Source of the DNA: Candidatus Bathyarchaeia archaeon
GTDB taxonomy: Archaea > Thermoproteota > Bathyarchaeia > Bathyarchaeales > Bathycorpusculaceae
NCBI GenBank assembly: GCA_050010755.1
Contig: JBEKKK010000005.1
Span: 2,276 to 66,275, forward strand
Length of the DNA stretch: 64,000 bases
Direction: 5' to 3'
The notes beneath the pieces were generated by a model. The model made no database searches and was not told where the DNA came from. It saw only the letters and a list, made by a program, of their open reading frames with translations. Position 1 is the stretch's first letter. Every line of letters begins with the position of its first letter. The position numbers were made by a program, and so were the translations under genes. Of the stretch, positions 1-38,484 are shown piece after piece.

Positions 1-700
1 TACCTCCCGACAAGGTTGAATTGAACAGTTGAGACTGACCAACATCCATGACCACAGAACCAGGCAAGATAGATACTGAAAGCTGAGCGTTCACTTGGAC
101 ATTGGCAGTGTTAGAGGTTGCAGACTGTGCTTTGCAATCTGTGACCTTCAAGTAGACTGAATAAGAGCCTGTTGAAGTGGGAGTGAAAGTCCACGAACCA
201 CTCGTCGCATTAGACACCATAGTACCGTTAAGGTACCACTGATACGAGTACGACGAAGTACCTCCAGACACCGAAGACTTGAATAATTGAGACTGACCAA
301 CATCCAAAACAACAGAACTTGGCGAGATAGACACCGAAAGCTGAGCGTTCACTTTAACGTTCGCGGTGTTAGACGCTGCTAGGAGTCCTTTGCTGTCAGT
401 GATTTTCAGGGAAACCGTGTAGGAGCCTGAAGATGTCGGTGCAAAGGTCCACGTTGAGCCAGTAGCACCCGAAACATTCGCATAGTTAAGGTACCACTGA
501 TACGAGTACGGCGAAGTACCTCCTGACACGGTTGAATTGAACAGTTGAGACTGACCAACATCCAAAACAACAGAACAGGGCAAAATAGACACGGAAAACT
601 CGACGCTGCAGGCTTTGACCGTTGGCACAAGATTGCCCAAGAAACCGAACATGCCAATCAGCAAAATACCTACCATTATCAGAGATAGCTGCTTCTTCAT
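1..700 (-). CDS. Secreted surface protein with tandem ~86-aa Ig-like/PKD-like repeats. The 5' end is in the window and the 3' end runs off the left edge.
   Basis: Hand translation of the minus strand from ATG (complement of 698-700) gives MKKQLSLIMVGILLIGMFGFLGNLVPTVKACSVEF..., followed by repeats such as SVVLDVGQSQLFNSTVSGGTSPYSYQWYLN...SGSYTVSLKITDS. The frame stays open to position 1. It is absent from the ORF track because the window edge truncates it. The DNA repeat period is 258 bp (ttgagactgacc at 29, 287, 545). Confidence 0.8.
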   Translation of the reverse strand, partial: MKKQLSLIMVGILLIGMFGFLGNLVPTVKACSVEFSVSILPCSVVLDVGQSQLFNSTVSGGTSPYSYQWYLNYANVSGATGSTWTFAPTSSGSYTVSLKITDSKGLLAASNTANVKVNAQLSVSISPSSVVLDVGQSQLFKSSVSGGTSSYSYQWYLNGTMVSNATSGSWTFTPTSTGSYSVYLKVTDCKAQSATSNTANVQVNAQLSVSILPGSVVMDVGQSQLFNSTLSGG

Positions 701-969
701 TCTCCCTTCTCCTTCAGCATACGCTAAGCTGCTGGTATATACAAGGAAGTTGTTGGTTATATATCTTGTGAAACTCAGTTCTATGGTTTTCGCGTTACGA
801 CGCAGCCCCTAAGACATATCAAATGATAAATCATACAAACAAACCCAAGCAAAAGCGCTCACAGACACGTACCAGGCTGTGCTTCAACTGTCGGTTTGCG
901 GTCATCCCTTCAGCACGGGAAGACAACCGAAACAGAAACGAAGGCTTCTACACTATGTCATGAATTGTG

Positions 970-2022
970 TTAGGTGTGTTGGCCGAAGCGTCTGGCCACA
1001 AGGGCGATATCTTTCATGCTTACTATGCCGTCGTTGTTCAGGTCCGCGTTGGGGTTCCAGTTACTTGAGCCTGAGGTGGAGCCGAAGCACCTGGCAATCA
1101 GAGCTATGTCTCGCATGTTAACCTGTCCATCAGGCCAACCGTTCGGACCCGTGACATCGCCGATTATCGATACCATTACCCAGCCACCGGTGCAGTTGTT
1201 GTTCGCGATGTTTGTTTCGCCTGGAACAGGCCAAGCGTAGGCGCTTATCGTGTAGTTGCCGTATGCAAAGCCCGTGGTGTTCCACGTGAACGTGAGGTTC
1301 GCATAGTTTCCACTTGAGAGGGTGACGTTCTGGGACGCGGTATAAATCATATTGGCGTAAGCTGAGACGTTGAAAGTTTCTGCAGCGGTGCCTAGGTTTT
1401 CGGCTGTCACGGTTATGTTACCGGTGTTTCCTTGGCCTATGACTGTCTTGTAAGACGTGACGTTTGTGACGGCTACGTCTTGGGTTGCGTTCACGTTGAC
1501 TGTCCCGTCAATGGCTGTGAAGGGGATTGATTGTCCTGGCGGTGGGAAACTTGCGTCATCGAGGTAGCTGATGTTGGGATCGCTTGAAAAGTGTAATGTG
1601 GTGTTGCCGGCAGTTTCTGCTTGAAACGTGATTGTCGCCAGCGTTCCGCTGCCATTTACTCCAGGCGCAGATCCATATAGAGCTGACCCGGCTACTACTA
1701 GGCCATGAGTGGCGTTGAATGCGTTGTTTATTGTGGAGTCGAAGATTGTGCTGTTGAACTGTTTTAAAAATGGGCCTTCCACGACACTTGTGCAGGTTAG
1801 TATCGTGTTGAGATAGTATAGTCCAAATTGCCATGTGGCAAGGTTTGTGACGTTTGCAATGGTCACGTTAATGCTGAAAGTTGTTCCCTGTCCTACTGTG
1901 AGGGTTGACGGAGCGAGCTGGATTATTGTCGTAATCATCGGTTGGGTTGCGGCGACAGGAATTAACAATGACAAAACCATGAACGAGATTATTGCTGGGG
2001 CCAGCGCTATTTTTCTCACCAT
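970..2022 (-). CDS. Secreted protein: cohesin-like domain + CARDB-like domain + C-terminal dockerin
   Basis: 350-aa ORF with an N-terminal hydrophobic signal (MVRKIALAPAIISFMVLSLLIPVAA). Cohesin-like beta-sandwich pattern: FSINVTIANVTNLATWQFGLYY...GTLATITFQAE...IDGTVNV. CARDB-like pattern: DVAVTNVTSYKTVIGQG...NYTISAYAWPVPGETNIANNN. Two dockerin Ca-loop repeats: [17 protein letters not shown] and NADLNNDGIVSMKDIALVARRFG. Confidence 0.85.
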   Translation of the reverse strand: MVRKIALAPAIISFMVLSLLIPVAATQPMITTIIQLAPSTLTVGQGTTFSINVTIANVTNLATWQFGLYYLNTILTCTSVVEGPFLKQFNSTIFDSTINNAFNATHGLVVAGSALYGSAPGVNGSGTLATITFQAETAGNTTLHFSSDPNISYLDDASFPPPGQSIPFTAIDGTVNVNATQDVAVTNVTSYKTVIGQGNTGNITVTAENLGTAAETFNVSAYANMIYTASQNVTLSSGNYANLTFTWNTTGFAYGNYTISAYAWPVPGETNIANNNCTGGWVMVSIIGDVTGPNGWPDGQVNMRDIALIARCFGSTSGSSNWNPNADLNNDGIVSMKDIALVARRFGQHT

Positions 2023-2111
2023 ATTCTATTTCCCTTCTCTCCCTTGGCGTCTAATTATACTTGGTCAAACTGAAATAAAGGGGGATGTTTGGTTTTTTGA
2101 GGAAGATAATG

Positions 2112-4502
2112 CTATGGATCGAGGCCGTATCCGTAGTTGTTGGCAACCTGTACTACGTCATAGATGTCGATGTGGCCATGGTTAAGCAGGTCGTATTGTG
2201 GAGGAACTGGGCCCGTCGGTTGCACTGCTTGGCCGTAGTAGTATGCAAGGACACGTATGTCATTTATGCCCACCACGCCGGTGCAGAGCACGTCGCCTCT
2301 TATGAAGTCAATCTCGATGGTTAATGGCGCCGGAGTGCTGATTCCGCCTATTGGTATGGTGCCTCCGGTGAAGCTGAGCGTGGCGGCTGCGATATAAGTT
2401 GGGAACGTCTCGTAGTTGGGCTTCGCGCTGTTCCAGATGTGATCCGCTGTGGCATTGAACTGGACGTTGAACGGAAGTTTAAATAGCAGTCCTTCAGAAC
2501 CAGACCAAGCTGAGCCAAGACCCGAGATTTGAACACTTGATGCTCCAGCTGTGTAGATTACAGTGCCTGCACCAAATATGCCCCAAGTTTGGACGGTTTG
2601 TAGCGCAACGAGTGTTGAGTTGAAATCGATTGTCAGGTTGTAAGCTGTAAATGACGTAACGTCGGTTACATAGACGTCAACTGTGAAATTATTGCCGCAT
2701 TCAAAGTGGTATGGGGATGTGACGGCATCCCATGCGCTCGTCTTTTTGTTATACTTTTCAACTTTGAATTCAAGGCCTGGCACCATAGCGCTCATAGTGT
2801 ACGTTCCGTCGGTGGCTGTCGTTGGAATTGGGTTTGACATTGTGTCGCTCAGCTTAACCACAGCAAAGTGAATCGGCGTCGAGAGTGGGAAGTTACTGCT
2901 CTGAGCAACCGTGAAGGTTAGCGTGAACAGGGCGGAGGCTTCTGCGTTGCTTGCGGATGTTGCCAGTGCTACGGCCGCAAGTTCGTAATAGCCCGCACCC
3001 GACTGTTCAAAAACAGTAGTCCAATTGCCTGTTCCCCAGAGAGCGTTCAGGGTAGTGGTGTAATCGACGGTTGTGAGAGTTATCAGACTGTTATCCCAGG
3101 TCAAGTTGATATCGAAACCCGCGAAATAGCTGAACTGTGAAAGCGTTACCGTCTGTGTGAAAGCCGTGCCCACATCGGTAGGTGCTTTGTTAACCGGGGT
3201 TGGGGTGATGGAGAGCGTTGCGGGTACTGGCGCGGTCAAGTACGGCTGATAATTCGCATTGCCATCGACTGGGTTTCCCAAGCCCGTGGGGTTGGAAGTT
3301 GCGTTGTACGGTCCTGTCGGGTCGCCCCAATAGTTGAACAGTGCACGCACTGGTGAAGAGTCAACTGTATCGTTTAAGCCGACGGTGTTGTTTTGTATCA
3401 CGTTGTAGGTTATCTGTGCGCCCGGAGCGCAGCCATCTGATCTCAGCCAGACTCCGTAATTGCAGTTGTAAATCCAGTTGCTAAATATGGTAGCGTTGGC
3501 AGCAGCGATGGGGGATGAACCGGTAGCGATGAAATCTATTCCATCAGAATCTGTTGAACCGGCAATGCCCGTTATCGTATTGCTCTCGACAAGCGGGGCA
3601 ATTATGCCGCCTCCGCTTCCTCCACCGTTCCAGAAGCCTATGCCCCTTCTATAGCTTTTCAAGTTGTTAATCGTGTTTCCTTGAATTACCACGTTGGTAA
3701 ACTGGGCATCGCTTACGCCATATGCAGCGCCTGGAGTGTTGAAGCTGACTGCTGTTGCCCTGGTGTCGTAGTCGAAAGTTGTTCCGGTGCCCATGTTGAA
3801 GGTGTTGTAACTCACGTTCTGAAGAGTTGTCACGGTGTTTGCATTGTACGTCATAAAGAATGTTGAGTCACCGCCTCCTAGGCCGGCCTCGAGATTGTTG
3901 TGGCTTATCTCAGTTGAACCTGTGTGCACTTCGAATACAATATTGTCTCCGCCGATGTTCGTGATGTTGTTGTATTTGAAAACTGCGTTCGCTTGGTCAT
4001 TCTGCGAATAGAAGCCTACCTCCATATCGTTTGGGTTTGTGTCTCCTGTTCCTACAATGTTGTTATTTGATATGTGATAAGTTGCGCCGGAAGTGCTGGA
4101 TGATGAAAAAATCTCGAATTCATTATAACTAGGATCCAGCGGTGCATTTTCCACTGTAAAGCCACTGAACGTCACGTCTCCTGGCGCGGTTATCTTCACC
4201 AGTCCCGCCGAAGCTAGCACCAAACCAGTACCGTTAATGAATGTTGAGGCAGCGCCAGAGCCAAGAACTTGTACAGCTTTGTTGATATCAACTTCTTCAT
4301 TGTAAGTTCCTGGACTAACCATGATAGTGTCGCCTGGGCTTGCAGCAGCGATGGCCTGGGTGATTGTCGGATACTCGCCAGGAACGGTAAGTGTGCCTGG
4401 GTCTGCTTTCGCTGTTGTTGGCAAATGTATCATTGGCATGCTTAGAAACAAAGTAAGAATCATTAGCATTGCTACTATTCCGTATCTAATCTTCATCTTC
4501 AT
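2112..4502 (-). CDS. Secreted right-handed parallel beta-helix protein with two cohesin-like domains and a divergent dockerin-like C-terminus
   Basis: 796-aa ORF with signal peptide MKMKIRYGIVAMLMILTLFLSMPMIHLPTTAKA. The N-terminus is typical of parallel beta-helix (pectate-lyase/NosD-like) proteins (PGEYPTITQAIAAASPGDTIMVSPGTYNEEVDINKAVQVLGSG) and is followed by many Gly/Asn-rich turns. Two cohesin-like modules are present (FAGFDINLTWDNSLITL...YYELAAVALATSASNAEASALFTLTF...DGTYTMSA, and a second one ending LTIEIDF). The C-terminal two-repeat segment is GDVLCTGVVGINDIRVLAYYYG...DLLNHGHIDIYDVVQVANNYG. Confidence 0.8.
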   Translation of the reverse strand: MKMKIRYGIVAMLMILTLFLSMPMIHLPTTAKADPGTLTVPGEYPTITQAIAAASPGDTIMVSPGTYNEEVDINKAVQVLGSGAASTFINGTGLVLASAGLVKITAPGDVTFSGFTVENAPLDPSYNEFEIFSSSSTSGATYHISNNNIVGTGDTNPNDMEVGFYSQNDQANAVFKYNNITNIGGDNIVFEVHTGSTEISHNNLEAGLGGGDSTFFMTYNANTVTTLQNVSYNTFNMGTGTTFDYDTRATAVSFNTPGAAYGVSDAQFTNVVIQGNTINNLKSYRRGIGFWNGGGSGGGIIAPLVESNTITGIAGSTDSDGIDFIATGSSPIAAANATIFSNWIYNCNYGVWLRSDGCAPGAQITYNVIQNNTVGLNDTVDSSPVRALFNYWGDPTGPYNATSNPTGLGNPVDGNANYQPYLTAPVPATLSITPTPVNKAPTDVGTAFTQTVTLSQFSYFAGFDINLTWDNSLITLTTVDYTTTLNALWGTGNWTTVFEQSGAGYYELAAVALATSASNAEASALFTLTFTVAQSSNFPLSTPIHFAVVKLSDTMSNPIPTTATDGTYTMSAMVPGLEFKVEKYNKKTSAWDAVTSPYHFECGNNFTVDVYVTDVTSFTAYNLTIDFNSTLVALQTVQTWGIFGAGTVIYTAGASSVQISGLGSAWSGSEGLLFKLPFNVQFNATADHIWNSAKPNYETFPTYIAAATLSFTGGTIPIGGISTPAPLTIEIDFIRGDVLCTGVVGINDIRVLAYYYGQAVQPTGPVPPQYDLLNHGHIDIYDVVQVANNYGYGLDP
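2787..3023. repeat. Inverted copy of cohesin-coding DNA shared with 5148-5384. It contains two perfectly identical tracts (2924-3023 and 2787-2849).
   Basis: The reverse complement of 2924-3023 equals 5148-5247 (100 bp). The reverse complement of 2787-2849 equals 5322-5384 (63 bp). Sequence between and around the tracts is diverged. Confidence 0.85.
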
Positions 4503-4614
4503 CCTTTCTCCTTTCTACCTTTATAGAGACTAAGTAAATCAGTGCGCACATCCGTATATAAATCTATGCGAAACTTTGTTCCATAATAGCATTTTAAGAA
4601 ACTTGAAATGGTGT

Positions 4615-4719
4615 ATTGTATCAAACAATTCATTGCTAAAAGAGTACTAAGTGTGATATCACGAATGATGGTTTCGAACAGTTCCAGAATATAATTCATT
4701 TTGAATTGTTTGATACAAT
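4615..4719. repeat. 18-bp perfect inverted repeat (4615-4632 / 4702-4719) with a 69-bp spacer, in the divergent intergenic region
   Basis: attgtatcaaacaattca at 4615-4632 is the exact reverse complement of tgaattgtttgatacaat at 4702-4719. It lies between the divergently transcribed genes 2112-4502 (-) and 4887-7175 (+). Confidence 0.8.
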
Positions 4720-4886
4720 TGTACATGTAAGCCACTTATATTCATTGCACAAAACGAGAGCTGGGGCTACATTTATAAACTCGATTAGACAAACTTATTA
4801 TTGCGAACACTCGCGAAAGAGTGAGCAAAGCAGGTTCAATGTAAAGGAGAGAGGAGAAAACGAGAATAGGGATAGCGATAGCAATT

Positions 4887-7175
4887 GTGTTATCGATAAT
4901 ATTCATTTCTTCAATTGTTGTTACACCAATCTGGCCCGTCAGAGCGGATGGTGGAGCTCAGCTTTACATAAGTCCATCCCTTGTAAATGAGGCTCCTGAG
5001 GATGTGGGGACAACTTTCAGCGTGAGCGTCACGTTTTCAAACTTCAGCAACTTCGCGGGTTTCGACATCAACTTGACATGGGATGGCAGCATAATAAGCT
5101 TCGTGAGCGCCGACAAGACTCCGCTGAACACGCTTTGGCCGGGTGGATGGACTACTGTTTTTGAACAGTCGGGTGCGGGCTATTACGAACTTGCGGCCGT
5201 AGCACTGGCAACATCCGCAAGCAACGCAGAAGCCTCCGCCCTGTTCAACGTTACTTTTCAGGCAGACAGAAGCGGTAGTTCCCCGTTGCAAACACCGATT
5301 CATTTTGCCTTAGCTCAGTTAAGCGACACAATGTCAAACCCAATTCCAACGACAGCCACCGACGGAACGTACACTATGAGCGCTGCGGAGACTGTCGTGT
5401 TTGGTGAGCTTGGTGTGGGATCTGATTTCAACGGAACGGTTCTTGCTGTTGACGGCAATAATTTCACTCTCAGCGCCCTTCCAGCAACGTTCACCTGGGA
5501 CGTTGGCTCAAACCACACTTTCGCTTTTCGTTCACGCTGTTTGGGCAGTGCAGGAACAACCAGATACGTGTGGATGTCCACTTCTGGACTTTCCACGGCT
5601 CAGAATGGGACATTCATTGTTCCCAGTGCAGGTGGATCAATCACAGGTAACTACAAAACGCAGTATAGTCTGACCGTGGTTTCGCCTTATGGTTCACCTG
5701 GTGGGGCAGACTGGTATGACAGCGGCTCAACCGCATACGCAACGTTGGCCAACGGAACAGTAATTATTACGCCTGGCTCGGTGCAGGCTGTTTTCACTGG
5801 ATGGAGCGGCGGCGCAACTGGAACAGGTCTCACGAGTAACCCGATAATCATGAGCGGCCCTATGACCGCCGTCGCTAACTGGATTATTCAATACAACCTG
5901 ACTGTGGTCACAAACCCGTCAAGCCTTCCGCCGATACCGGGCACAAACTGGTATGACAACTGGACATGGGTCAACCTGACGGCCCCACAATTCGTTCCAA
6001 ATGCTACAGGCGTTGGTGGCGTTCGCTACAACTTCACCTACTGGGACCTTGACGGAGCCTCACAAGGCCTAGGGGTCAACCCGATTAGCATACAAATGAA
6101 CGAAGCCCACGTGGCGACCGCACACTTCAAGGTTCAGTGCCTCGTCACTTTCGGTCAAACTGGTCTTGACGGAACGGCGACGAGCACAGTTGCAACGGTA
6201 AACGGCTCAGCATACACTTATGGAACCCTGCCCCTCAGCGAGTGGATCGATAATGGCACAGCTATAAGTTACTTGTACTCCAGCGTAGTTTCAAGCAGTT
6301 CTTCAGGCCAGCAGTTCGGACTGAGCAACGTCACGGGCCAAGCCTCACCAGCGACTGTGACAGGGCCAATAATTATAACGGGAAACTATGTTGCTCAGTA
6401 CAACATTACGTTCTCTTTAACAGGCGTGGGCAATGACTTCACAGGAAACTCAGCCACCATAGACAACTCTAGCTATATCCTGGTCCTGCCAACTTCATTT
6501 TGGTGGAACAACGGCTCAACCCACAGTTTCGCGTTCAGGTCGCCACTGGTTGGCCTGATGAAACCGTACTTTTGGAATTCCACAACAGGCTTGTCCAACT
6601 TACAAAATGATTCAATTGTAATTACAGGTCCAGGCAACGTAATTGGCAACTACGTCAGCAACGTCCACAGCGTTATCGTTGCAAGCGTAACCTTCTTCCC
6701 TTACAACATCCCAATGGTCTACCAAGGATGCTACAACCTGACCATCCTCGTCACGATAAGGAACACTGGAGACTACCCTGAAAGTACATGGGGCGGGTTG
6801 TGGCACAACTACACAGCCGGAGAAAGCATAGGCACCTTTCCTGCGGGAGAACTCTCCGTGGGACAGTCCGCCACCTACTCATTCGCATGGGACACCACAT
6901 ATGTGCCAATCAACTATAGCTACACTCTGACCGCAATTGTATCATATACAGAGGGCCGGAACGTGATGAACGTGCCAAACTTCCAAGTCAGAATCCCAGG
7001 CGACGTGAACGGGGACGGGAGAGTCGACATGAGAGACATAGCATTGGTGGCACGAGCGTTCGGAAGCAACAAAACATCTTCAAATTGGAACCTATACGCA
7101 GATATAAACGGGGACGGCGTCGTCAACATGAGAGACGTCGCACTCGCAGCCAGACACTTCGGCCAACAGGTCTAA
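4887..7175 (+). CDS. Secreted protein: N-terminal cohesin-like domain, InlB-B-repeat-like beta domains, CARDB-like domain, C-terminal dockerin
   Basis: 762-aa ORF with a GTG start; no ATG lies upstream after the stop at 4842. The cohesin-like segment is nearly identical to that of 2112-4502 (FAGFDINLTWDGSIISF...YYELAAVALATSASNAEASALFNVTF...DGTYTMSA). Repeats of the type GNYKTQYSLTVVSPYGSPGGADWYD...FTGWSGGATGTG...ANW are present. The dockerin is GDVNGDGRVDMRDIALVARAFG...NLYADINGDGVVNMRDVALAARHFG. Confidence 0.85.
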   Translation: MLSIIFISSIVVTPIWPVRADGGAQLYISPSLVNEAPEDVGTTFSVSVTFSNFSNFAGFDINLTWDGSIISFVSADKTPLNTLWPGGWTTVFEQSGAGYYELAAVALATSASNAEASALFNVTFQADRSGSSPLQTPIHFALAQLSDTMSNPIPTTATDGTYTMSAAETVVFGELGVGSDFNGTVLAVDGNNFTLSALPATFTWDVGSNHTFAFRSRCLGSAGTTRYVWMSTSGLSTAQNGTFIVPSAGGSITGNYKTQYSLTVVSPYGSPGGADWYDSGSTAYATLANGTVIITPGSVQAVFTGWSGGATGTGLTSNPIIMSGPMTAVANWIIQYNLTVVTNPSSLPPIPGTNWYDNWTWVNLTAPQFVPNATGVGGVRYNFTYWDLDGASQGLGVNPISIQMNEAHVATAHFKVQCLVTFGQTGLDGTATSTVATVNGSAYTYGTLPLSEWIDNGTAISYLYSSVVSSSSSGQQFGLSNVTGQASPATVTGPIIITGNYVAQYNITFSLTGVGNDFTGNSATIDNSSYILVLPTSFWWNNGSTHSFAFRSPLVGLMKPYFWNSTTGLSNLQNDSIVITGPGNVIGNYVSNVHSVIVASVTFFPYNIPMVYQGCYNLTILVTIRNTGDYPESTWGGLWHNYTAGESIGTFPAGELSVGQSATYSFAWDTTYVPINYSYTLTAIVSYTEGRNVMNVPNFQVRIPGDVNGDGRVDMRDIALVARAFGSNKTSSNWNLYADINGDGVVNMRDVALAARHFGQQV
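5148..5384. repeat. Partner of the inverted cohesin-coding repeat at 2787-3023
   Basis: 5148-5247 and 5322-5384 are exact reverse complements of 2924-3023 and 2787-2849. Confidence 0.85.
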
Positions 7176-7188
7176 GATAGCACTCTAA

Positions 7189-7208
7189 TTTTTTTGATAC
7201 CAAAAAAA
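7189..7208 (+). terminator. T7 run / A7 run palindrome immediately downstream of gene 4887-7175
   Basis: tttttttgataccaaaaaaa lies 14 nt after the TAA stop. Archaeal termination commonly uses oligo-T tracts, and this sequence can also fold as a hairpin. Confidence 0.4.
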
Positions 7209-7455
7209 GGCAAGATGATAAGATTCCCTCCTCAGATTTACCTTAACATCGCGTACATCCAGTTCTAAACACAGTATATATTCACCAATCGATTCTTCGC
7301 CCGTTAACGAACGAGCAGGTTTATTATAAGAGCTCTTTGCTGTACCTGAAGACCTTCCTCTCGAATCTTTGAACTGGCGTTAGAGAAAAAGCTTCATCGT
7401 GTTTTGATATTAAGCACGAAAATATCACATATTAGCTTTCGCTTATCTTATTCAA

Positions 7456-7570
7456 CTATTTTCGATACATTTCCACGATTTCTTCAGTAGTGTTTGCGTC
7501 TTCTGCAGATTTGTCAGGTCGGTAGTTCCATGTAAAACGTGGAAAGCGAATGGCTAATCCGCTTCCCTTT
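7456..7570 (-). pseudogene. Fragment duplicating the 3' end of the DNA ligase gene
   Basis: The minus-strand translation is [36 protein letters not shown]-stop. The intact ligase C-terminus (9483-...) reads [44 protein letters not shown]. The fragment is preceded by an in-frame stop, so it is a truncated relic. Confidence 0.85.
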
Positions 7571-7582
7571 CTAGCGCGCGCA

Positions 7583-7639
7583 GTCAACATGAGAGATATA
7601 GCGTTGCTAGCCCGACATTTCGGGCAACACTACCCATAA
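7583..7639 (+). pseudogene. Orphan dockerin C-terminal fragment
   Basis: The plus-strand translation [18 protein letters not shown]-stop matches the last dockerin helix and terminus of the intact paralogs (for example VSMKDIALVARRFGQHT and VNMSDIAILARHYGQHE). No upstream ORF is attached. Confidence 0.75.
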
Positions 7640-7784
7640 CCACATTCGCGAAAAGCGAAGATTGCCATTTTGTCAATTCAAAAGAAAGAAGAGGGTTTTG
7701 GCATCTCTGTTCTATTTGGATGCGAATATGGCCATGATAACGGTGCTGCGCGCGACCTATCTATGAGGGCCCAACAGCTATCTC

Positions 7785-9317
7785 TTACGGGTCGGTGTTT
7801 CCAAAGTGTCTGGCAATCAAGGCGATATCTCTCATGTCGATTTTTCCGTCGTTGTTAAAATCTGCGTTCGCGTTCCAGTTGCCAGAACCGGGGGCAGACC
7901 CGAAACATCTGGCAGTGACAGCAATGTCCTTCATGTCAACCCGCCCGTCAGGCCAGCCGGTTTTGCTTGTGATGTCGCAGGCAATCGCGACTATGATCGA
8001 ATGGTCTGTGAAGTTGTTGTTCGACGTGTTCGTTTCGTCTGGAACAGGCCAAGCGTAGGCGTTGATTGTGTAGTTTCCCTTGGCAAAACCAGTGGCATTC
8101 CAGACAAGAGTCATGTTAGTTGAGGTTCCGCTTGCCAGGGTTACGTTTTGCGAGGTGACAAAGGTTGCGTTGGCGTACGCGGTGACATTGAAGGTTTCAG
8201 TATAGTTACCCGAGTTTTGAACGGTCGCCGTGAGGTTACCCAGATAACCTTGCCCCAAAATGGTCTTGGCCGATGTAAGGTTTGTGATCGCTACGTCGTC
8301 GATTCCCGTCGATGAAGTTGCAATCGCCCCTCTTATGAAAGCGTGCCAGTTCGGGTCTGGCGAGAAGCCGTTGATTTGCAAGTAGTTCTGCAACTCCAGC
8401 GCAGATGGCAGATAGCCTGGAGGCGGTGGCATCACCGGATAGGGTACTGCGGTGTAAGCGTCCTGCGATACCAGTGAGGCATTGTTGTGGTCGCTGGTCG
8501 AAAGATCAACGTGTGGAACCGGTGAGCGACCCGGAACCACCCCAGCTTCGAAAGCGTTGTAGTAAGGGTCACTCACAAGCACCTGGTTGGTCAGGTTATC
8601 GATACCAGCGCAAGTCACGCAGTGGCCCAGTTCGAAGATTGGGTTTGTAGCGGGTATCCAGTTTCCCGCGTTGAAGTACCAGAATTCGAGACAGAGTTCA
8701 ACATCCTGGCAAGCCTCGACCTGTTGGTCAATCCAGCTAAAGCCAGCCGGCCCAGCAGGGTAATCCATTCCGTGAACCTCGAACAATCCAGCTACGCCAT
8801 GGTTTGCTAAGTATGCGTTAATTCCGGGCTGAATGTCTGCGTACTTCGTTCCAACGTAGCCTCCACCCACTCCAAGGCCGTCCGTGTGCATATCCGTTGC
8901 CAGCTCGGGGACAATTCCGAAGACGTTTTGCGGGTCATGGTCGTCCCACGGGCCATAAGCGGTTACTAAGCTGAAGTGATCGCTTACTGTCGGAGGGGGC
9001 ACCGGAGTCGAGTAGTTCTTTGACTCGAATTTCGAGTCAAGCCACCAGAGCGAGTTTGCAACGGCAACCGGAACACACCAAGAGTATTGCACATGTCCTA
9101 CGTCAGTCGTAAATTGAGGTTGCTTCTCGTCAAAATCCGGCATACCGCTGGGAGCGTAGTCTGGGAATCCAGGCTTGACGTACCCCGGCCACGAGTCGAG
9201 CCGTGCTCCATAAGTGTGTAGGACCACTAGTGTGCTTGTCATCATCATAACAGTTAAAATCAAAGATGCATACTTCAATAGAATACTCATTGTTTTCCCT
9301 TTCTCCCTATATTTCAA
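7785..9317 (-). CDS. Secreted putative papain-fold (C39-like) cysteine peptidase + CARDB-like domain + dockerin
   Basis: 510-aa ORF with a signal/TM segment (ILLKYASLILTVMMMTSTLVVL). The candidate nucleophile context is YSWCVPVAVANSLWWLD and the later candidate His context is ELGHCVTCAGID...VSDPYY. The CARDB-like segment is DVAITNLTSAKTILGQG...NYTINAYAWPVPDETNTSNNN. The dockerin is DGRVDMKDIAVTARCFG...NADFNNDGKIDMRDIALIARHFG. The coding call is strong; the peptidase assignment is tentative. Confidence 0.8.
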   Translation of the reverse strand: MKYREKGKTMSILLKYASLILTVMMMTSTLVVLHTYGARLDSWPGYVKPGFPDYAPSGMPDFDEKQPQFTTDVGHVQYSWCVPVAVANSLWWLDSKFESKNYSTPVPPPTVSDHFSLVTAYGPWDDHDPQNVFGIVPELATDMHTDGLGVGGGYVGTKYADIQPGINAYLANHGVAGLFEVHGMDYPAGPAGFSWIDQQVEACQDVELCLEFWYFNAGNWIPATNPIFELGHCVTCAGIDNLTNQVLVSDPYYNAFEAGVVPGRSPVPHVDLSTSDHNNASLVSQDAYTAVPYPVMPPPPGYLPSALELQNYLQINGFSPDPNWHAFIRGAIATSSTGIDDVAITNLTSAKTILGQGYLGNLTATVQNSGNYTETFNVTAYANATFVTSQNVTLASGTSTNMTLVWNATGFAKGNYTINAYAWPVPDETNTSNNNFTDHSIIVAIACDITSKTGWPDGRVDMKDIAVTARCFGSAPGSGNWNANADFNNDGKIDMRDIALIARHFGNTDP

Positions 9318-9384
9318 TACAAAACTATAGAGTCATGTTTCAGGTTAAAAGATTTTCGGCAGAATGTTCTATATGTCTCAAACT

Positions 9385-9415
9385 TGACACATTAGTGTCA
9401 GGGAAGCTGCTTCCC
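9385..9415. promoter_or_regulatory. Two adjacent perfect palindromes (tgacac-atta-gtgtca; gggaagc-t-gcttccc)
   Basis: Read directly from the sequence. They lie 68-98 nt upstream of the start of gene 7785-9317 and about 70-100 nt downstream of the ligase stop. They could be operator sites or transcript-end hairpins. Confidence 0.25.
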
Positions 9416-9482
9416 ACTCCTTGCGCGCACTTAAGGCCAGGCTATTTTCAAGCTGATGAATCTGTTGAATGATTATCTGGAC

Positions 9483-11246
9483 CTAGCTTTCACCAATCTT
9501 CTTCAACTGTTTCCGGTACATTTCGACGATTTCTTCGGAAGTGGTCGCATCTTCCGCTGCTTTGTCCGTCCTATAGTTTCCAGTAAAACGGGGAAAACGA
9601 ATGGCCAGTCCGCTTCCTTTACGAACGGCATCTTTGGCACACGTGTGGATAGGGCTTAATGTGATCTCTGCGCCCAGGATTTCAAGCACTGTTATTGGCT
9701 CAAACCAGACGTCAGCTTCAAGCGTTGAATTGACTCTCGAATGTTTGTGTTGAATTACATATTTTTGCAGCATTTTCGGAAGCCTTGCCAGGTCTTCGTC
9801 AGTGAACCCTGTTCCACACTTCGTCACAGTTTCGAACGTGTCGTTCTGTGAATTGTAGGCTGCAAGCAACAGAGCACCGTAAGCGCCTGCCCGTTTTCCT
9901 CTACCGTGAAAAGCTCCCACCACAACCAGATCAACAGTGTCGGTCATCTCACTCTTGTAGTCCCGTTTGTACTTTATCCAAAGCCAGCCGCGGGCGCCAG
10001 CCTGATAAACCGAATCCTTTGCGATTGACTTGCACACCAGACCTTCACAACCATTCTCAATCGCATCTTGAAAGAACTTTTCAAGCTCCTCCGCGTTCTT
10101 TGCAACTGTGTAGTTGGCTGTCGTCGTATGTTCACTGCTTCCAACCACCTTCTCGAGCAGTTTCCTCCGTTCTGGATAAGGCTCGAACGTTAAATCCTTT
10201 CCATCAACATAGAGCAACTCAAAGAAGAAAAGAGAGACCGGATAATCTTCAATGGCTTTCTCAATCCCATATTTGCGCCTGCGATGCATAAGTTCTTGAA
10301 AAGGGCGCATCTCACCCGTGTCAGGATCTACAGCCACGCATTCACACTCAAGAATCGCTTCTCTTGCCTTGACATGCTTCTTGAAGAGTCCGACGGCATC
10401 GGGGTATTGACTTGAAATGTTCTCCAAACGTCTAGAATAGAGCGTAACCTTCTCTCCTTTCTTATGTGCCTGGAGTCGTTCCCCGTCATACTTGTACTCG
10501 GCAATGCATTTTCCACCCAGTTTTTCCAATATTTCCTCGGGAGAAGAGAGCCTTTCCGCCAGCATCGGTCGAATAGGCTCGTCAATCGACACGTGGAAAC
10601 TCTTGATCCCCTCTATTCCTTGGCGGACAATGGTTTCAGCCACTCGTCCAAGGTCTGAACAGATGTTGTAAGCCCGCTCTACAAGTTCCCGGCTATCCTT
10701 CCCTCCCCCATAAGCGATAGCCAAGGCGTCCAGAACAGTCATATCGGCTATGCCCAAACGGAGGTTGCCTGTCGCAGTTCTCATGATGTACTTTGCTTCC
10801 TTCGGACTGGCCGCGGCTAAAAGCCCAGCCAAGAGGGAAAGCTTCATATCCACAGCTCCGGAACCTGAAGACGCTGCCATTTTGTCAAGCGTTTCATAGA
10901 CCTTCTGAACTGTCAACGGCTCTTGAGAAAAGGTAACTTGCCTCTTGCTCGCAAGAAACTTCTGAGCCGTTTCTCCAACATCTCCTGTATGCTCAATGTC
11001 GTCTTCGATTTCGGTTTCTCTCCTCCCAGAAGCTCTCGCAAGGGCTTTTATCGCTGATTTTTCAGCCACGCCAATTTCTATTCCGGAGAAATCAGGGTGT
11101 ATTCGGCCTTGAGTCAAATAGGCGACTTTGCCTATGAGTTCTTTCGGCGTGTTCTTGAGCAGATCAACCAACAGGTCCGTCATTTCAAGTCTCTTACTCG
11201 TGGCCTCTATCTTTTCATAAGCATCCGCAATGACAATGTACTTCAA
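9483..11246 (-). CDS. lig: ATP-dependent DNA ligase
   Basis: 587-aa ORF with the adenylation motif I KYDGERLQAH. It also has the typical archaeal ligase N-terminal DNA-binding domain and a C-terminal OB domain (LWIKYKRDY, VVGAFHGRGKRAG, AIRFPRF). Confidence 0.95.
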   Translation of the reverse strand: MKYIVIADAYEKIEATSKRLEMTDLLVDLLKNTPKELIGKVAYLTQGRIHPDFSGIEIGVAEKSAIKALARASGRRETEIEDDIEHTGDVGETAQKFLASKRQVTFSQEPLTVQKVYETLDKMAASSGSGAVDMKLSLLAGLLAAASPKEAKYIMRTATGNLRLGIADMTVLDALAIAYGGGKDSRELVERAYNICSDLGRVAETIVRQGIEGIKSFHVSIDEPIRPMLAERLSSPEEILEKLGGKCIAEYKYDGERLQAHKKGEKVTLYSRRLENISSQYPDAVGLFKKHVKAREAILECECVAVDPDTGEMRPFQELMHRRRKYGIEKAIEDYPVSLFFFELLYVDGKDLTFEPYPERRKLLEKVVGSSEHTTTANYTVAKNAEELEKFFQDAIENGCEGLVCKSIAKDSVYQAGARGWLWIKYKRDYKSEMTDTVDLVVVGAFHGRGKRAGAYGALLLAAYNSQNDTFETVTKCGTGFTDEDLARLPKMLQKYVIQHKHSRVNSTLEADVWFEPITVLEILGAEITLSPIHTCAKDAVRKGSGLAIRFPRFTGNYRTDKAAEDATTSEEIVEMYRKQLKKIGES

Positions 11247-11349
11247 CTCGCCAACCTCTCAGAGGCTAGATAGATTCGACGGCCTATTAAATTGTCAGAC
11301 CGAAACCCTTGCAGGCCTCAGAGCTGATTTGCTTCAAGAAACTTGCGCT

Positions 11350-11895
11350 TCACTCTCTTTGAAACACTTCGTAGTGCACAACCTGGTGTGCAGTTCGTTT
11401 GCCTCGCGAAGAAGGAAACTTTGATGCGTGCCCCACTGGAATCAACGCCACGGGCCGTATTCCCTCAGCAAGGTTCAGGATTTCACTTACAGCTCCCTCC
11501 TTGAACGCGCCTACCCAGCACGTGCCTAAACCAGCCGAGTAGGCAGCCAAATGAATGTTCTGTATGGCTGCGGCAGTGTCCTGTATACAGTACATTGTTC
11601 TGCCTCTCTCACCATATCCCTCGAAAGAACGATTTTCATCGGCGCAAACGACGATCACGACTGGAGCATCCTCTAAAAACGATTGGCCAAAGGCGGCTTC
11701 TGCCAGTTTCTTCTTGAGTTCTGATCTTCTGACGATTATGAACTCCCACGGCTGGATGTTCCCAGCCGAAGGCGCCCACCGGGCAGCATCTATCAAACCT
11801 GCAACAGTTTCTTTCGACACATCCTTCCCGCTTTCAAAAGCCCTTACACTTCTCCTACCCTTGATCGCCTCAATCACGTCCATATTTTCCTTCAA
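11350..11895 (-). CDS. Nitroreductase family protein
   Basis: 181-aa ORF with the motifs RRSVRAF, APSAGNIQPWEFIIV and a conserved C-terminal GIRPVALIPVG. Confidence 0.8.
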   Translation of the reverse strand: MKENMDVIEAIKGRRSVRAFESGKDVSKETVAGLIDAARWAPSAGNIQPWEFIIVRRSELKKKLAEAAFGQSFLEDAPVVIVVCADENRSFEGYGERGRTMYCIQDTAAAIQNIHLAAYSAGLGTCWVGAFKEGAVSEILNLAEGIRPVALIPVGHASKFPSSRGKRTAHQVVHYEVFQRE

Positions 11896-12114
11896 CTCCG
11901 AGCTTTACAATTTACTGCACAAAAGCCTTAAGTTTTGTCGTATCCCCTAGTTCAGCCAGGATGATGAGAACGAGAGTCAACAGAGCAAAAGCGGTGATGT
12001 GACTCGACGGGCGAACTGACATAATCCAGTACAGAAAACTTATGAACAAAAAACCGAGTGGAGATAGGAAACTAGGATGCAAGAATGCAATTCGCAGTAT
12101 GGAAAAGGTGAAAG

Positions 12115-13782
12115 TTGTCGAAACAGAAAATCATCGAGGCCTTAGATGCAGCATCATCGAGAAGAAGCATTAAGTACGCAGTGTACCTGATTGCGATAAT
12201 CCTTTTCTTCGCCCTGATTCTTCTGCCTCCCATACTTGGAATAGTCATACATTTCACCTCAATCCAGGTCGTCCTCAACAACCCAGCGCTCGAAAACCGG
12301 GCCTTGACGGCGATTGCGAACAGTTTCACGATCGCGCTTTTTGTCGCAGCTATCGATCTCATTGCTGGAATTCCAATGGCATGGCTCATAGCTCGTAAGA
12401 GATCGCGATGGCTAAGCGCCCTTGACACGTTGTCTGACATTCCATTTATTGTGCCGACAGCCGTTCTCGGCTACTCACTTCTTCTCTTCTGGTACAAGCC
12501 TTCCGGAATATCGGCGGTCTTCGAAGGGCCGCTCATTTCACCGGGATGGCTTTTGGTGATACTGCTCCACTTCACTTTTTCCTTTCCAGTCGTCGTCAGA
12601 GTTGTGGTCGGAGCACTGCTGGATTACAAACGAGAGTTCGAAAACGCCTCAAGAACGCTGGGCGCCCCGCCTCTCACCGCGTCAAGAACTGTCACATTCC
12701 CAATAATAAAACCATCATTAATAGCAGCCTTCATCCTTGCCTTTTCGAGATCGGTCTCAGAAACAGGCGCAACCTTCATAGTCGCAGGAGCCTTTGAAAA
12801 CGGTTCAATTTTCCTGCAAAACATAAAGAAAACCTACGGGTCCACAAATCCCACATTTTACGGAGCCATCGTTTTCGCAAGCTTCATCCTTATCGCAGTC
12901 TCCGTTTCTATCTTCTTGATAGTTCGCACGTTGGGTCCCCGATTGAAGCTGCCTGTCAAACGCATTTGGCCGTCTTTCGAAAGGAAACTGAGCTATTCCA
13001 AAGCGGAATCCTCAAGAAACACAGCCACACTTGCAGTCTTTTTGGCAATCGTTCTGATACCATCATTATTCGTTGCACTCCCAGCGTTTCAGGCAATATT
13101 CACGAACACGTTCAGCGCGTCCCTGCAAGGCAAGGGCATCTGGGCGAGTTATTGGCAGGGGCTGGTCCTCTCGTACGGTCTTGCGGCGATAGTCACCGTG
13201 CTTAACATAATCATCGGATTGCCCATGGCCATCGCCATTGCGAGAAAAAAGCTCGGTCACGTATCATCAGGAATCTTGGACGTTCTCGTCAACATTCCTT
13301 TAGTCGTTCCCTCAATAGCGCTGGGGTTTTCTCTTGCAATTTTCTGGAACACCTTCACTTCCATACCACAGCTCCTGCTGCTGATTTTTGCCCACCTCAC
13401 AATCACGTATCCTTACTTCGTCAGGTCCATGTCGGCAGCTGTGGAAAGAATCAGCATGGATATGGAAGAAGCCTCGAGGACACTCGGAGCCAAACCACTG
13501 GGAGTTTTCAGGACCATCATTTTGCCCTTGACGAAGTACTCAGTATTTTCAGGCGCAGTGCTCGTTTTCACCAGGAGCGTGAGCGAAACCGGTGCGACGA
13601 TGGCGGTGGCTTCAACACTGAAAACTGTGCCATTGGTACTAGTGAACTGGATAAACCCTCCATCCGGCCAGCTGACTGCCTCACCTTTGCAAATAGGACT
13701 AGGAAGCGGTTACTTAATACTCCTCTCGTTCCTCATTCTCCTCGCATCAAGATTCATCGTGAAAGGCAAAGGAAGATACTGA
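12115..13782 (+). CDS. ABC importer permease, fused two-domain type (Fe(III)/thiamine FbpB/ThiP-like)
   Basis: 555-aa polytopic ORF with a TTG start. Two EAA-type loops are present: ASRTLGAPPLTASRTVTFPIIKP and ASRTLGAKPLGVFRTIILPLTKY. The substrate cannot be determined. Confidence 0.8.
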   Translation: MSKQKIIEALDAASSRRSIKYAVYLIAIILFFALILLPPILGIVIHFTSIQVVLNNPALENRALTAIANSFTIALFVAAIDLIAGIPMAWLIARKRSRWLSALDTLSDIPFIVPTAVLGYSLLLFWYKPSGISAVFEGPLISPGWLLVILLHFTFSFPVVVRVVVGALLDYKREFENASRTLGAPPLTASRTVTFPIIKPSLIAAFILAFSRSVSETGATFIVAGAFENGSIFLQNIKKTYGSTNPTFYGAIVFASFILIAVSVSIFLIVRTLGPRLKLPVKRIWPSFERKLSYSKAESSRNTATLAVFLAIVLIPSLFVALPAFQAIFTNTFSASLQGKGIWASYWQGLVLSYGLAAIVTVLNIIIGLPMAIAIARKKLGHVSSGILDVLVNIPLVVPSIALGFSLAIFWNTFTSIPQLLLLIFAHLTITYPYFVRSMSAAVERISMDMEEASRTLGAKPLGVFRTIILPLTKYSVFSGAVLVFTRSVSETGATMAVASTLKTVPLVLVNWINPPSGQLTASPLQIGLGSGYLILLSFLILLASRFIVKGKGRY

Positions 13783-13835
13783 CATGTTTAATAAACAAGC
13801 CCAGTCCATGACGTTGTTCGAGCAACCATGAATTC

Positions 13836-14960
13836 ATGTTGGAAGTGAGCTCTTCAATGCCGGACGTTCGAATCGAAAACGTAACCAAAAGGTTCGGGAA
13901 ACTAGTGGCAGTGGACGACGTGAGCCTTCACATTCATGAAAAGGAATACTTCGCTCTGTTGGGACCGAGTGGGTGTGGAAAAACAACCCTTCTGCGGCTC
14001 ATTGCGGGACTAATCAAGCCTGACAAGGGGAAAATATACATCGGGGACAGGCTCGTCAATGATGTCCCTCCAGAAGACCGGGATATTGGCTTCGTCTTTC
14101 AGACGTTCGCGCTGTTTCCGCACATGGATGCGTGGAACAACGTGACCTATGGCCCAAAAGTAAAGGGTTTCGACATGAAGAAAGCGGGGACGATTGGACA
14201 TGAAGTGCTTGAAATGGTCAGGCTGAACGAACGCTTGGACGCTTTTCCGAATGAACTTAGCGGTGGAATGATGCAGAGGATAGCCGTGGCGCGGGCTTTG
14301 GCTGCGGGGGCCAAACTGCTGCTTCTGGACGAGCCTCTGGGACAGCTGGACGCAAAAGTGCGGAATGACTTGAGGTACGAAATACGGAGGATGACGAAGG
14401 ATTTGGGACTTACCGCAATTCACGTGACTCATGATCAGGCTGAAGCAATGGCAATTTCTGATAGGATAGCAGTCATGAAGAAAGGAAGCATAAGACAAGT
14501 TGGCACACCAAGCGAGCTTTACATGTCTCCGGACAACGTTTTTGTGGCCAACTTTATCGGAGAATCAAACTTTCTGGAAGGGTATGTCGCAGAGGAAGAT
14601 GACAAGAAGATGACGATAGACCTTCGGGGCAAGGTTCAGATTGAAGTGACAAAGGACAAAGCACGAAAGGGTGAGAGAATAGTATTAGCCATTAGGCCGG
14701 AAACCTTCCTCGTCAAGAAGGGGATAGTGAAAGATGAAAACTCAATCGCTGGAACTGTTGAAAGGGTAACCTTTGAGGGAACAAACATACGTTACGAGAT
14801 CAGACTTAAAAACCAGGACCTGATCGTTATTGTTAAACCTTCAATGACGGGAGAATGGCTTCGTGTCGAGGATGAGGTAACGGTGAGCTTTTCTTCGGAG
14901 AAAGTTCACGTGTTCGAGTATCCCGCGACAGGTTTGAAGGAGGAAATCGCGGTTGAGTGA
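13836..14960 (+). CDS. ABC transporter ATP-binding protein with a C-terminal TOBE-like domain (PotA/FbpC/CysA-like)
   Basis: Walker A is GPSGCGKTT, the signature is LSGGMMQRIAVARAL and Walker B is LLLLDEP. A ~130-aa C-terminal extension follows. Confidence 0.9.
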   Translation: MLEVSSSMPDVRIENVTKRFGKLVAVDDVSLHIHEKEYFALLGPSGCGKTTLLRLIAGLIKPDKGKIYIGDRLVNDVPPEDRDIGFVFQTFALFPHMDAWNNVTYGPKVKGFDMKKAGTIGHEVLEMVRLNERLDAFPNELSGGMMQRIAVARALAAGAKLLLLDEPLGQLDAKVRNDLRYEIRRMTKDLGLTAIHVTHDQAEAMAISDRIAVMKKGSIRQVGTPSELYMSPDNVFVANFIGESNFLEGYVAEEDDKKMTIDLRGKVQIEVTKDKARKGERIVLAIRPETFLVKKGIVKDENSIAGTVERVTFEGTNIRYEIRLKNQDLIVIVKPSMTGEWLRVEDEVTVSFSSEKVHVFEYPATGLKEEIAVE

Positions 14961-15612: not shown

Positions 15613-15623
15613 GGCGATGAAAC

Positions 15624-15908: not shown

Positions 15909-16002
15909 CCTCAAGTTGCGACTCTGAAACACTGAAGGGTGAACCATTCCTTTCCTGAGAGCTATTCTCAATTCGACGAAACCGTATCAAACAGGAATGC
16001 AC

Positions 16003-16012: not shown

Positions 16013-16029
16013 ACGCTCAGGTAGAAAAT

Positions 16030-36342: not shown

Positions 36343-36344
36343 TT

Positions 36345-38471: not shown

Positions 38472-38484
38472 GGCGAGAATGATT

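Follow-up and report, generated by a model that had tools for sequence, protein, structure and literature searches.

Bacterial cellulosomes, such as those of Acetivibrio cellulolyticus (ScaA/ScaB/ScaC) and Clostridium thermocellum (CipA with SdbA/OlpB), follow a tiered logic in which anchor, adaptor and cargo proteins are joined by cohesins and dockerins. That archaea possess cohesin and dockerin modules has been known since 1999, and the literature still describes their role there as unknown (PMC5244752, PMC9012536). Binding between an archaeal cohesin and a dockerin was shown experimentally for A. fulgidus, according to work cited in PMC9012536, and anaerobic methanotrophic (ANME) archaea encode proteins that combine a dockerin with up to five cohesins, as well as dockerin-bearing OppA/NikA proteins (PMC9012536). 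Here, we describe a cluster of cohesin and dockerin genes in 64,000 nucleotides of DNA from a Candidatus Bathyarchaeia archaeon (assembly GCA_050010755.1, contig JBEKKK010000005.1, positions 2,276 to 66,275; the whole stretch is hereafter called the window), together with what lies next to it in the same genome.

Six open reading frames (ORFs), termed pA to pF, are present exactly where an initial annotation of this DNA had placed them. Their positions and architectures are as follows (aa, amino acids; Ig, immunoglobulin):

970-2022, minus strand: pA, 350 aa; signal peptide, A-type cohesin (~1483-1941), CARDB-like Ig domain (~1198-1455), dockerin (~979-1170)
2112-4502, minus strand: pB, 796 aa; signal peptide, right-handed β-helix head (~3228-4397), B1 cohesin (~2775-3209), B2 cohesin (~2295-2771), degenerate dockerin (~2115-2294) joined to B2 without a linker
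4887-7175, plus strand: pC, 762 aa; short signal peptide, B1 cohesin (~4956-5384), InlB-B-like repeats (~5394-6686), CARDB (~6735-6941), canonical and internally symmetric dockerin (~6996-7166)
7785-9317, minus strand: pD, 510 aa; signal peptide, C39-like putative cysteine peptidase head (~8313-9194), CARDB (~7998-8285), dockerin with an insertion in loop 1 (~7794-7982)
21389-22702, plus strand: pE, 437 aa, 12 kb from the cluster; signal peptide, G1 glutamic peptidase, CARDB, dockerin
58338-59720, plus strand: pF, 460 aa; signal peptide, β-rich head, F-type dockerin (residues ~372-425), 35-aa tail

All six proteins begin with a hydrophobic stretch that, judged by eye, resembles a signal peptide (6/6), and in three of them (pA, pB and pC) cohesin and dockerin do share one polypeptide. 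Module identities, secretion signals, membrane tails, clustering and conservation, as established below by sequence analysis and structure prediction, incline us on balance towards a tiered, surface-anchored cohesin-dockerin network. An apparently complete set of parts is found at one locus: an anchored cohesin, three putative adaptors and at least four dockerin-only candidate cargo proteins, two of them predicted peptidases.

The likeness to the archaeal non-cellulosomal proteins (A. fulgidus AF2375-type, ANME-1/-2) is that the proteins are secreted, lack glycoside hydrolases and carry cohesin and dockerin on one chain; as in ANME, dockerins sit on non-cellulolytic heads that include OppA-type binding proteins (PMC9012536; here in L025, a related locus described below). 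Unlike the A. fulgidus and ANME proteins, those described here belong to the Bathyarchaeia lineage, form a conserved multi-gene cluster with three cohesin classes, are accompanied by dockerin-less cohesins anchored by a PE[FY]-transmembrane-basic tail or by a plain transmembrane helix, and have as putative cargo C39-like and G1 peptidases and a 2141-aa adhesin. With bacterial cellulosomes they share the tiered anchor-adaptor-cargo logic, deduced here from genes alone, best matches to type II X-dockerins and type II cohesins, and an Ig-like module directly before the dockerin. In contrast to bacterial cellulosomes, there are no cellulases, no carbohydrate-binding modules (CBM), at most two cohesins per protein, no large multi-cohesin scaffoldin and no anchoring by S-layer homology (SLH) repeats or LPXTG signals, almost every cohesin protein also carries a dockerin, and the host is archaeal.

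The basic finding is already annotated, most of these proteins having the NCBI product name "dockerin type I domain-containing protein" (pA, pC and pF; pE is labelled "G1 family glutamic endopeptidase"). The reading given by the initial annotation holds in the main, though it missed the anchor, and the novelty that it saw in a cohesin and a dockerin on one archaeal chain was overstated, as this arrangement has been described for ANME archaea (PMC9012536). What is new is the complete and conserved parts list, the PE[FY]-tailed family of anchored cohesins, and the peptidase and adhesin cargo. Neither such a system in Bathyarchaeia nor cohesins with PEF-type tails came up in the literature searched, the coverage of which was incomplete and cannot prove absence.

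Cohesin and dockerin modules

The gathering score of the Pfam Cohesin model (PF00963) is 24.1 bits, and three of the four cohesins proposed by the initial annotation exceed it: that of pA with 34.5 bits, module 1 of pB with 29.3 and that of pC with 29.5. The fourth, module 2 of pB, stays just under the cut-off (22.9 bits, E 1e-4) but is supported by profile and fold matches. Its family profile, built from a 21-sequence alignment, matches solved cohesins (3l8q_A, E 1.7e-7). An AlphaFold model of pB residues 572-796, covering cohesin 2 and the dockerin, has a mean predicted local distance difference test (pLDDT) score of 90.7 and a predicted template modelling (pTM) score of 0.85, which is not interpretable as binding. 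The top 50 Protein Data Bank (PDB) matches of the modelled module are almost all cohesins, with template modelling (TM) scores (target) of 0.54-0.74; among the best are 2vo8 (TM 0.74) and, in a further likeness to A. fulgidus, the cohesin 2xdh of that organism (TM 0.68). The nine-stranded β-sandwich (jelly-roll) fold, examined on this weakest module only, is present in it. The outcome that would have counted against the initial annotation, segments that miss the cohesin models or take the fold of an unrelated β-sandwich, was thus not observed, the fold being judged on module 2 of pB.

The four modules fall into three classes, A, B1 and B2, each kept across genomes at 40-80% identity, while identity between classes is only ~15-30%. 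No protein of the window has more than two cohesins (pB), and relatives have up to three. Module 1 of pB and the pC cohesin are 71% identical overall at the protein level, and within them lies a perfect inverted repeat of 100 nt (2924-3023 and 5148-5247, 100% complementary). pB and pC are divergently transcribed, and the repeat is a recent gene-conversion tract between them. By keeping part of the two B1 cohesins identical, this tract suggests that they share a ligand.

For dockerins, the gathering score of Pfam Dockerin_1 (PF00404) is 22.9 bits, which is exceeded by five of the six modules (pA 37.0, pC 52.5, pD 32.9, pE 41.9 and pF 29.9 bits). The claim of a dockerin in pB needs qualifying: on its own the segment has no Pfam match, but it is recognised through its family profile, as a degenerate dockerin. 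The pB C-terminus aligns column for column with the other five modules, its orthologues carry PF00404, and the family profile matches solved dockerins (2y3n_B, E 1e-10). When hidden Markov models of the modules themselves were run against the six-frame translation of the window, they returned exactly six dockerins and four cohesins, and nothing further. E-values of the cohesins and dockerins against curated models range from 1e-7 to 1e-14, and the pattern is therefore not due to chance.

A seventh dockerin, in a giant adhesin described below, completes the set, and all seven contain a duplicated EF-hand-like segment of ~22 residues. The calcium loops, for which the pattern is D-x-[DN]-x-[DN]-G ... 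D12 with a helix behind it, are canonical in pC, pE and the giant adhesin. The dockerins of pA and pD have a 5-aa insertion in loop 1, loop 1 of pF is without acidic ligands, and neither loop of pB retains its Ca ligands at positions 3 and 5, which are occupied by L and by T or H, respectively. About four dockerin classes can thus be told apart: A/D with the loop insertion, the canonical C/E, F, and B. That of pF is not strictly terminal, being followed by a tail of ~35 aa. The symmetric repeats of type I dockerins permit dual binding modes; here, the two repeats are identical at 15/21 positions in pC and at 16/21 in the giant adhesin.

Compared with PDB sequences, the dockerins match type II X-dockerin dyads best (2b59_B, 4u3s_B and 5k39_B). 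Taken with the type II cohesins matched by the partner modules, these fit an anchoring-type interaction and prove nothing on specificity. The profile matches to the bacterial dyads of X-module and dockerin reach upstream of the dockerin, where pA, pD and pE have a common CARDB+dockerin cassette that is 52-62% identical despite three unrelated heads (pA to pD 62%, pA to pE 58%). The CARDB modules of pC, pD and pE score 18.9, 27.9 and 20.4 bits, and that of pD matches 3idu in fold (TM 0.76). The upstream reach of the profile matches suggests that CARDB may act as an X-module in front of the dockerin. In several homologues of pD, a complete dockerin is inserted inside the peptidase head itself, an unusual position (e.g. 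"...GVNPIGDVNGDGVVNATDLNIV..."), either in addition to the C-terminal module or replacing it.

Anchored cohesins and their tails

The first letters of the window belong to a gene that runs off it:

1-700, minus strand: 5' part of a giant repeat adhesin gene, start codon at ~700

This gene contains 258-nt tandem repeats (window 1-600) and interrupts all contigs from the window's own samples. It is intact on the 1.33-Mb contig ERZ25039512 contig_45439 of a relative with 95.7% DNA identity over window positions 1-12000. There it encodes 2141 aa, in which a signal peptide is followed by 6 PKD/Ig repeats, ~15 DUF11/CARDB/DUF7507 repeats and, at the C-terminus, a dockerin (Pfam: DUF7507 1e-101, DUF11, CARDB, PKD, and Dockerin_1 with 46.2 bits), and it is by its sequence the seventh dockerin protein of the system. 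The gene order in this relative is ligase, pD, pC, pB, pA, the 2141-aa dockerin adhesin, a 330-331-aa protein and an M28 peptidase. The 330-331-aa protein, which we refer to as the anchor protein, has a signal peptide, a divergent cohesin β-domain, an Ig-like domain and the tail "...VIPEYAVLSLLFIMIAMLAVAITIARKKHGK".

pB is 100% identical to ABSB89_10220, a protein of a Candidatus Bathyarchaeia metagenome-assembled genome. A 99%-identical copy of the anchor protein, ABSB89_09325, has the same genome prefix and lies on a second contig from the same three samples. At its start, that contig carries the 3' end of the giant gene, including the dockerin, so the two contigs are adjacent and the anchor belongs to the window's genome. 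The initial annotation had seen no membrane-anchored scaffoldin: this holds inside the window, but an anchored cohesin protein is encoded two genes past window position 1 in the same genome. Further along, a membrane-anchored M28 peptidase adjoins the anchor gene. A 934-aa protein encoded 2.5 kb further has a cohesin at its N-terminus (E 8.5e-14) and a transmembrane helix at its C-terminus, with InlB-like repeats and a NosD β-helix besides, and a gene for an 896-aa OppA-like oligopeptide-binding protein is found 8 kb on.

The cohesin of the anchor protein is divergent enough to be missed in single-sequence searches: Pfam and NCBIfam run on the protein alone recognised no cohesin, and hhalign of the single sequence to cohesins gave 25% probability only. 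When an alignment of the N-domain family was used instead, hhalign to the cluster cohesins gave 96.6% probability (E 5e-10 over 137 columns), and the N-domain profile matched solved type II cohesins (3l8q_A, E 1e-6; 3fnk_A, 7e-5). We then searched 1.84 billion cluster representatives with the anchor-family profile, which returned 4324 matches at E <= 1e-3. Among the best 150 of these, 85 have the cohesin N-domain; at least 33 of the 85 have a C-terminal PE[FY] with a transmembrane helix and a basic cluster behind it, while in 26 the C-terminus is formed by a dockerin. As anchored and dockerin endings occur on the same cohesin, the same socket exists in an anchored form and an adaptor form. Scanning a genome collection with patterns from the anchor's Ig-like domain yielded six Bathyarchaeota loci with little cohesin or dockerin content.

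Anchored cohesins are also found in relatives. In locus L011, a 379-aa protein inside the cluster has a cohesin recognised by Pfam (53.5 bits) and a transmembrane anchor at its C-terminus. In L025, a PEF-tailed cohesin adjoins an OppA-like dockerin protein, an Opp ABC transporter and a cohesin+dockerin protein of the same cohesin type; the OppA-like binding protein (13513-16434, 973 aa) has its dockerin internally, at residues 712-772 (E 1e-15).

In the anchor tail, P and E are invariant; the next residue is F or Y, and a transmembrane helix and then RKK come after it. No SLH repeat or LPXTG signal was found in the anchored cohesins, whose tails are either of this PE[FY]-transmembrane-RKK kind or a plain transmembrane helix. 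The tail has the tripartite build (PE[FY], hydrophobic helix, basic cluster) of PEF-CTERM/archaeosortase C sorting (TIGR03024/TIGR03762), and the window contains a sortase-family gene. It differs from that system in that the curated models stay under their cut-offs and the window genome's copy has PEY, not PEF: two members of the anchor family score 17.8 and 14.5 bits with the PEF-CTERM model TIGR03024 (cut-off 23), and the PEY variant of the window's genome has no match to it. Three genes of the window bear on this point:

25192-26751, plus strand: exosortase/archaeosortase-family membrane protein (Pfam Exosortase_EpsH 78.9 bits; TIGR04178 34.8 bits, cut-off 23)
26862-31001, minus strand: 1379-aa surface protein with pC-type repeats and a C-terminal "SEYA"-transmembrane-KRK tail, adjoining the sortase-family gene
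46961-48238, minus strand: PQQ-like β-propeller protein ending in "PIPEF...TM...RKKR" (motif scan, Pfam)

The curated PEF-CTERM model does not match the β-propeller protein; its PIPEF tail nevertheless indicates that PEF-type tails are in use in the window's genome. The sortase-family protein is a candidate processing enzyme for PE[FY]-type signals, and may thereby be linked to the cluster. Processing of the anchor tail by a sortase is a reasonable supposition. The sortase-family protein is 519 aa long and has a cytoplasmic C-terminal extension of ~200 aa with a Cys-rich, zinc-ribbon-like motif. Together with the neighbouring 1379-aa surface protein, which has neither cohesin nor dockerin, it may form a sortase-substrate pair of an undescribed subtype.

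Heads, conservation and candidate assembly

The heads of the dockerin proteins differ in how firmly they can be named. That pE is a G1 glutamic peptidase is borne out by Peptidase_A4 (123.4 bits, cut-off 22.3) and by alignment to aspergillopepsin II (1y43_B, E 9e-13), in which Gln109 and Glu190 stand opposite Q24 and E110 of the heavy chain, which we take to be the catalytic Gln/Glu pair. The pD head had been called papain-like. Peptidase_C39_2 matches 6 of 28 family members (best E 5e-6; E 0.03 on pD itself) and Gln66, Cys81, His232 and Asp250 are invariant in the family, but no structural match was obtained: a fold search with the full-length pD model, in which the head is of moderate quality (~50-80 pLDDT), was dominated by CARDB and dockerin and gave no peptidase match for the head, and the family profile run against PDB sequences had no match in the head either. 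The papain-like label therefore derives from the weak Pfam matches and the invariant residues, and a C39-like fold is plausible, not established. The pD head defines a large family, with at least 599 matches.

The β-helix head of pB is upheld by a NosD-family match (32.5 bits, weak) and by orthologues with Pfam Beta_helix. There is also a weak DUF1565 match, and the N-cap matches 3vst (a GH120 xylosidase, E 9e-6) and 1xg2 (a pectinesterase, E 5e-4), PDB matches of the β-helix spanning the N-terminal 40-60 residues only. The InlB-B-type repeats of pC are supported through relatives annotated as InlB B-repeat, and are homologous to the 1379-aa surface protein (E 2e-33). The pC frame is open for a further 14 codons (4845-4886) upstream of its GTG start at 4887, which would provide a better signal-peptide n-region ("...EEKTRIGIAIAIV"). 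This segment contains no ATG, GTG or TTG, so either the pC start is non-canonical or its signal peptide lacks a charged n-region.

Neither the seven dockerin proteins nor the cohesin proteins had a match above threshold to any glycoside hydrolase (GH), polysaccharide lyase (PL), carbohydrate esterase (CE) or CBM family. The description of the cluster as archaeal and non-cellulolytic is therefore correct, the seven dockerin proteins containing no glycoside hydrolase or CBM domain. We considered a cellulosome as an explanation and rejected it, as carbohydrate-active enzyme and CBM domains are missing.

In relatives, genes of the pB type are clustered with other cohesin and dockerin genes in all five loci compared (5/5), in different genomic neighbourhoods:

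L006, pB orthologue 68% identical: ligase, pC-like, two pB-like, pA-like and giant gene, without pD
L008, pB orthologue 47% identical, different neighbourhood: PKD-dockerin protein, pB, pC-like and pA-like
L010, more distant: eight cohesin/dockerin genes in a row, one with a multicopper-oxidase domain
L011, more distant: ~eight cohesin/dockerin genes
L012, more distant: pB orthologue between two cohesin+dockerin proteins, one of 2463 aa

The trio of pB, pC and pA is kept across distant Bathyarchaeia, with pC-like and pA-like partners down to 47% identity, and nearly all cohesin proteins of the relatives' clusters also carry a dockerin. The multicopper-oxidase protein of L010 (4225-5622) joins a cohesin, a laccase-like multicopper-oxidase domain and a dockerin in one chain, and might bear on how Bathyarchaeia turn over lignin or phenolics.

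We propose the following scheme, in which partner choice, Ca dependence, sortase processing, substrate and the tethering and recruitment steps are as we infer them. Single-cohesin proteins would be fixed to the envelope as anchors, namely the 330-331-aa protein with its type-II-like cohesin, the PE[FY]-transmembrane-RKK tail of which may be processed by an archaeosortase, and the 934-aa protein. pA, a candidate adaptor, pB, a candidate two-socket adaptor or mini-scaffoldin, and pC would plug into other cohesins by their dockerins and offer one or two cohesins of their own. The dockerin-only proteins (pD and pE, both candidate cargo, pF and the 2141-aa PKD/DUF11 adhesin) would be recruited to these sockets. 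All cohesin-dockerin binding would be Ca-dependent, and degradative and adhesive proteins would as a result be concentrated at the cell surface, the most plausible service being attachment to detritus and scavenging of protein and peptides.

The initial annotation's label of a proteolytic complex is only partly supported: pD and pE have predicted peptidase heads, but among the four clustered genes only pD does, pE lying 12 kb away. Peptide scavenging is backed by these two heads, the M28 neighbour, the OppA-like gene near the anchor and the dockerin-bearing OppA-like protein of L025. That proteolysis is the main purpose of the network we hold to be somewhat unlikely, and less likely than the network itself. 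A "peptidosome", in which archaeosortase-tethered cohesins would hold tiers of adaptors that display peptidases, adhesins and even an Opp oligopeptide-binding protein, so that attachment, proteolysis and peptide uptake would be coupled on one scaffold, is a more speculative idea that we rate as rather unlikely. Bathyarchaeia are an abundant uncultured lineage of sediment and peat, long proposed to degrade detrital protein. A peptidosome, if true, would supply a mechanism for this role and a first functional assignment for archaeal cohesin-dockerin systems.

Several observations weigh against the tiered network or parts of it. The pB dockerin lacks canonical Ca ligands in both loops and the first loops of pA, pD and pF are atypical; such dockerins might not bind classically. 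With ~3-4 cohesin classes and 4 dockerin classes, no pairing can be assigned. One paralogue of the anchor has housekeeping genes as its neighbours and no dockerin gene close by. On the side of the tail, the curated PEF-CTERM model is below its cut-off on the anchor family and misses the PEY copy, and the ORF at 25192-26751 is not recognised as archaeosortase C (ArtC; 26 bits, cut-off 100). As to function, the fold of the pD head is unconfirmed by structure comparison, pD is alone among the four clustered genes in having a peptidase head, and the β-helix, InlB-like and PKD/DUF11 heads point equally to adhesion or glycan binding.

Three other explanations were weighed. The initial annotation had envisaged head-to-tail chaining without a scaffoldin, and cohesin and dockerin do share chains; with a membrane-anchored cohesin protein now found, however, tiered attachment through anchor, adaptor and cargo is at least as likely as free chaining. 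In its full form, free chaining would lead to open polymers or to a matrix resembling a sheath, and neither an anchor nor a hierarchy would be defined. It would account well for the dockerin on nearly every cohesin protein of the clusters and for the highly symmetric dockerin repeats of pC (15/21) and the giant adhesin (16/21), and in A. fulgidus the cohesin is reported to pair with the dockerin on its own protein. We nevertheless hold it to be unlikely, because dockerin-less, membrane-anchored cohesin proteins beside the cluster and in relatives indicate a surface-tethered hierarchy, and because the conservation of three cohesin and ~four dockerin classes across genomes suggests specific wiring over promiscuous self-association. 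An equally improbable reading takes the complex to be an analogue of the cellulosome, directed at glycans or plant polymers, with the peptidases incidental; polysaccharides or peat lignocellulose would in that case be bound or cut by the β-helix, InlB-like, PKD and CARDB heads. The pectin-lyase-like β-helix fold of the pB head, with its N-cap like 3vst and 1xg2, would suit such a role, as would the cohesin/multicopper-oxidase/dockerin protein of L010 and the peat or soil metagenomes that the JGI sample identifiers presumably denote, but the β-helix matches are limited to those N-terminal 40-60 residues, two heads are recognisable as peptidases, and the absence of any GH, PL, CE or CBM above threshold in the seven dockerin proteins speaks against it.

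The modules might also be real homologues that do not pair at all: dockerins would then be Ca-binding tails that stabilise the protein or serve at the envelope, cohesins would be Ig-like spacers, and clustering would have come about by duplication and shuffling. Traces of recent duplication, conversion and rearrangement at the locus are clear, the Ca loops of several dockerins are degenerate, and the function of non-cellulosomal cohesin and dockerin modules is still called unknown (PMC5244752, PMC9012536). This explanation appears very improbable to us, given that the three-gene set is kept to 47% identity in different genomic contexts, that the same type of cohesin ends in a membrane tail or in a dockerin, and that in L025 a dockerin is inserted in an OppA-like binding protein beside an anchored cohesin, all of which are hard to explain without a pairing function. 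It is also to be counted against it that, to our knowledge, every cohesin-dockerin pair tested in bacteria and A. fulgidus binds.

The conserved set of parts turns a vague annotation into a testable wiring diagram of ~6 cohesins by 7 dockerins. Should the pairs bind, this would show how Bathyarchaeia organise extracellular degradation, the PEF-type tail would be a new anchoring mode in cohesin-dockerin biology, and new orthogonal cohesin-dockerin pairs would become available for the engineering of protein assemblies. Should they fail to bind, the "cellulosome-like" annotation of archaeal modules would need rethinking.

Genomic setting and other genes of the window

Archaeal housekeeping genes flank the cluster (an ATP-dependent DNA ligase, Rad50/Mre11, FttA and a proteasome subunit), and its guanine and cytosine (GC) content is even, from which we conclude that the cluster is chromosomal and not a mobile element. 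A mobile-element or viral origin was considered and rejected on the uniform GC content, the housekeeping flanks and the ligase synteny kept in relatives. The sole insertion element of the window lies elsewhere, at 36.6-37.7 kb.

The spacer between pC and pD (7176-7784) contains two relics:

7456-7590, minus strand: second copy of the last ~40 codons (3' end) of the DNA ligase gene
7550-7639, plus strand: half-dockerin remnant, ending in a stop codon and back to back with the ligase copy

In L006, the 68% relative, the ligase is found directly beside pC and pD is absent. Relics and relative together suggest that pD arrived by duplicative rearrangement.

Other features of the window stand apart from the cohesin/dockerin genes. 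A patch of low GC content at 36000-40000 (0.40, compared with ~0.48) includes an IS240/IS6-type DDE transposase (36614-37741), a NYN-domain protein (37884-38471) and a GNAT acetyltransferase (39083-39610), and is probably an insertion element with passenger genes. At 53422-56715 is encoded a 1097-aa protein of helical, TPR-like sequence that has neither a signal peptide nor a Pfam match. Lastly, a 1054-aa surface-type protein (60272-63436) has PKD domains and a poly-Gly linker and carries no cohesin or dockerin; its ORF as listed has no start-proximal signal peptide.

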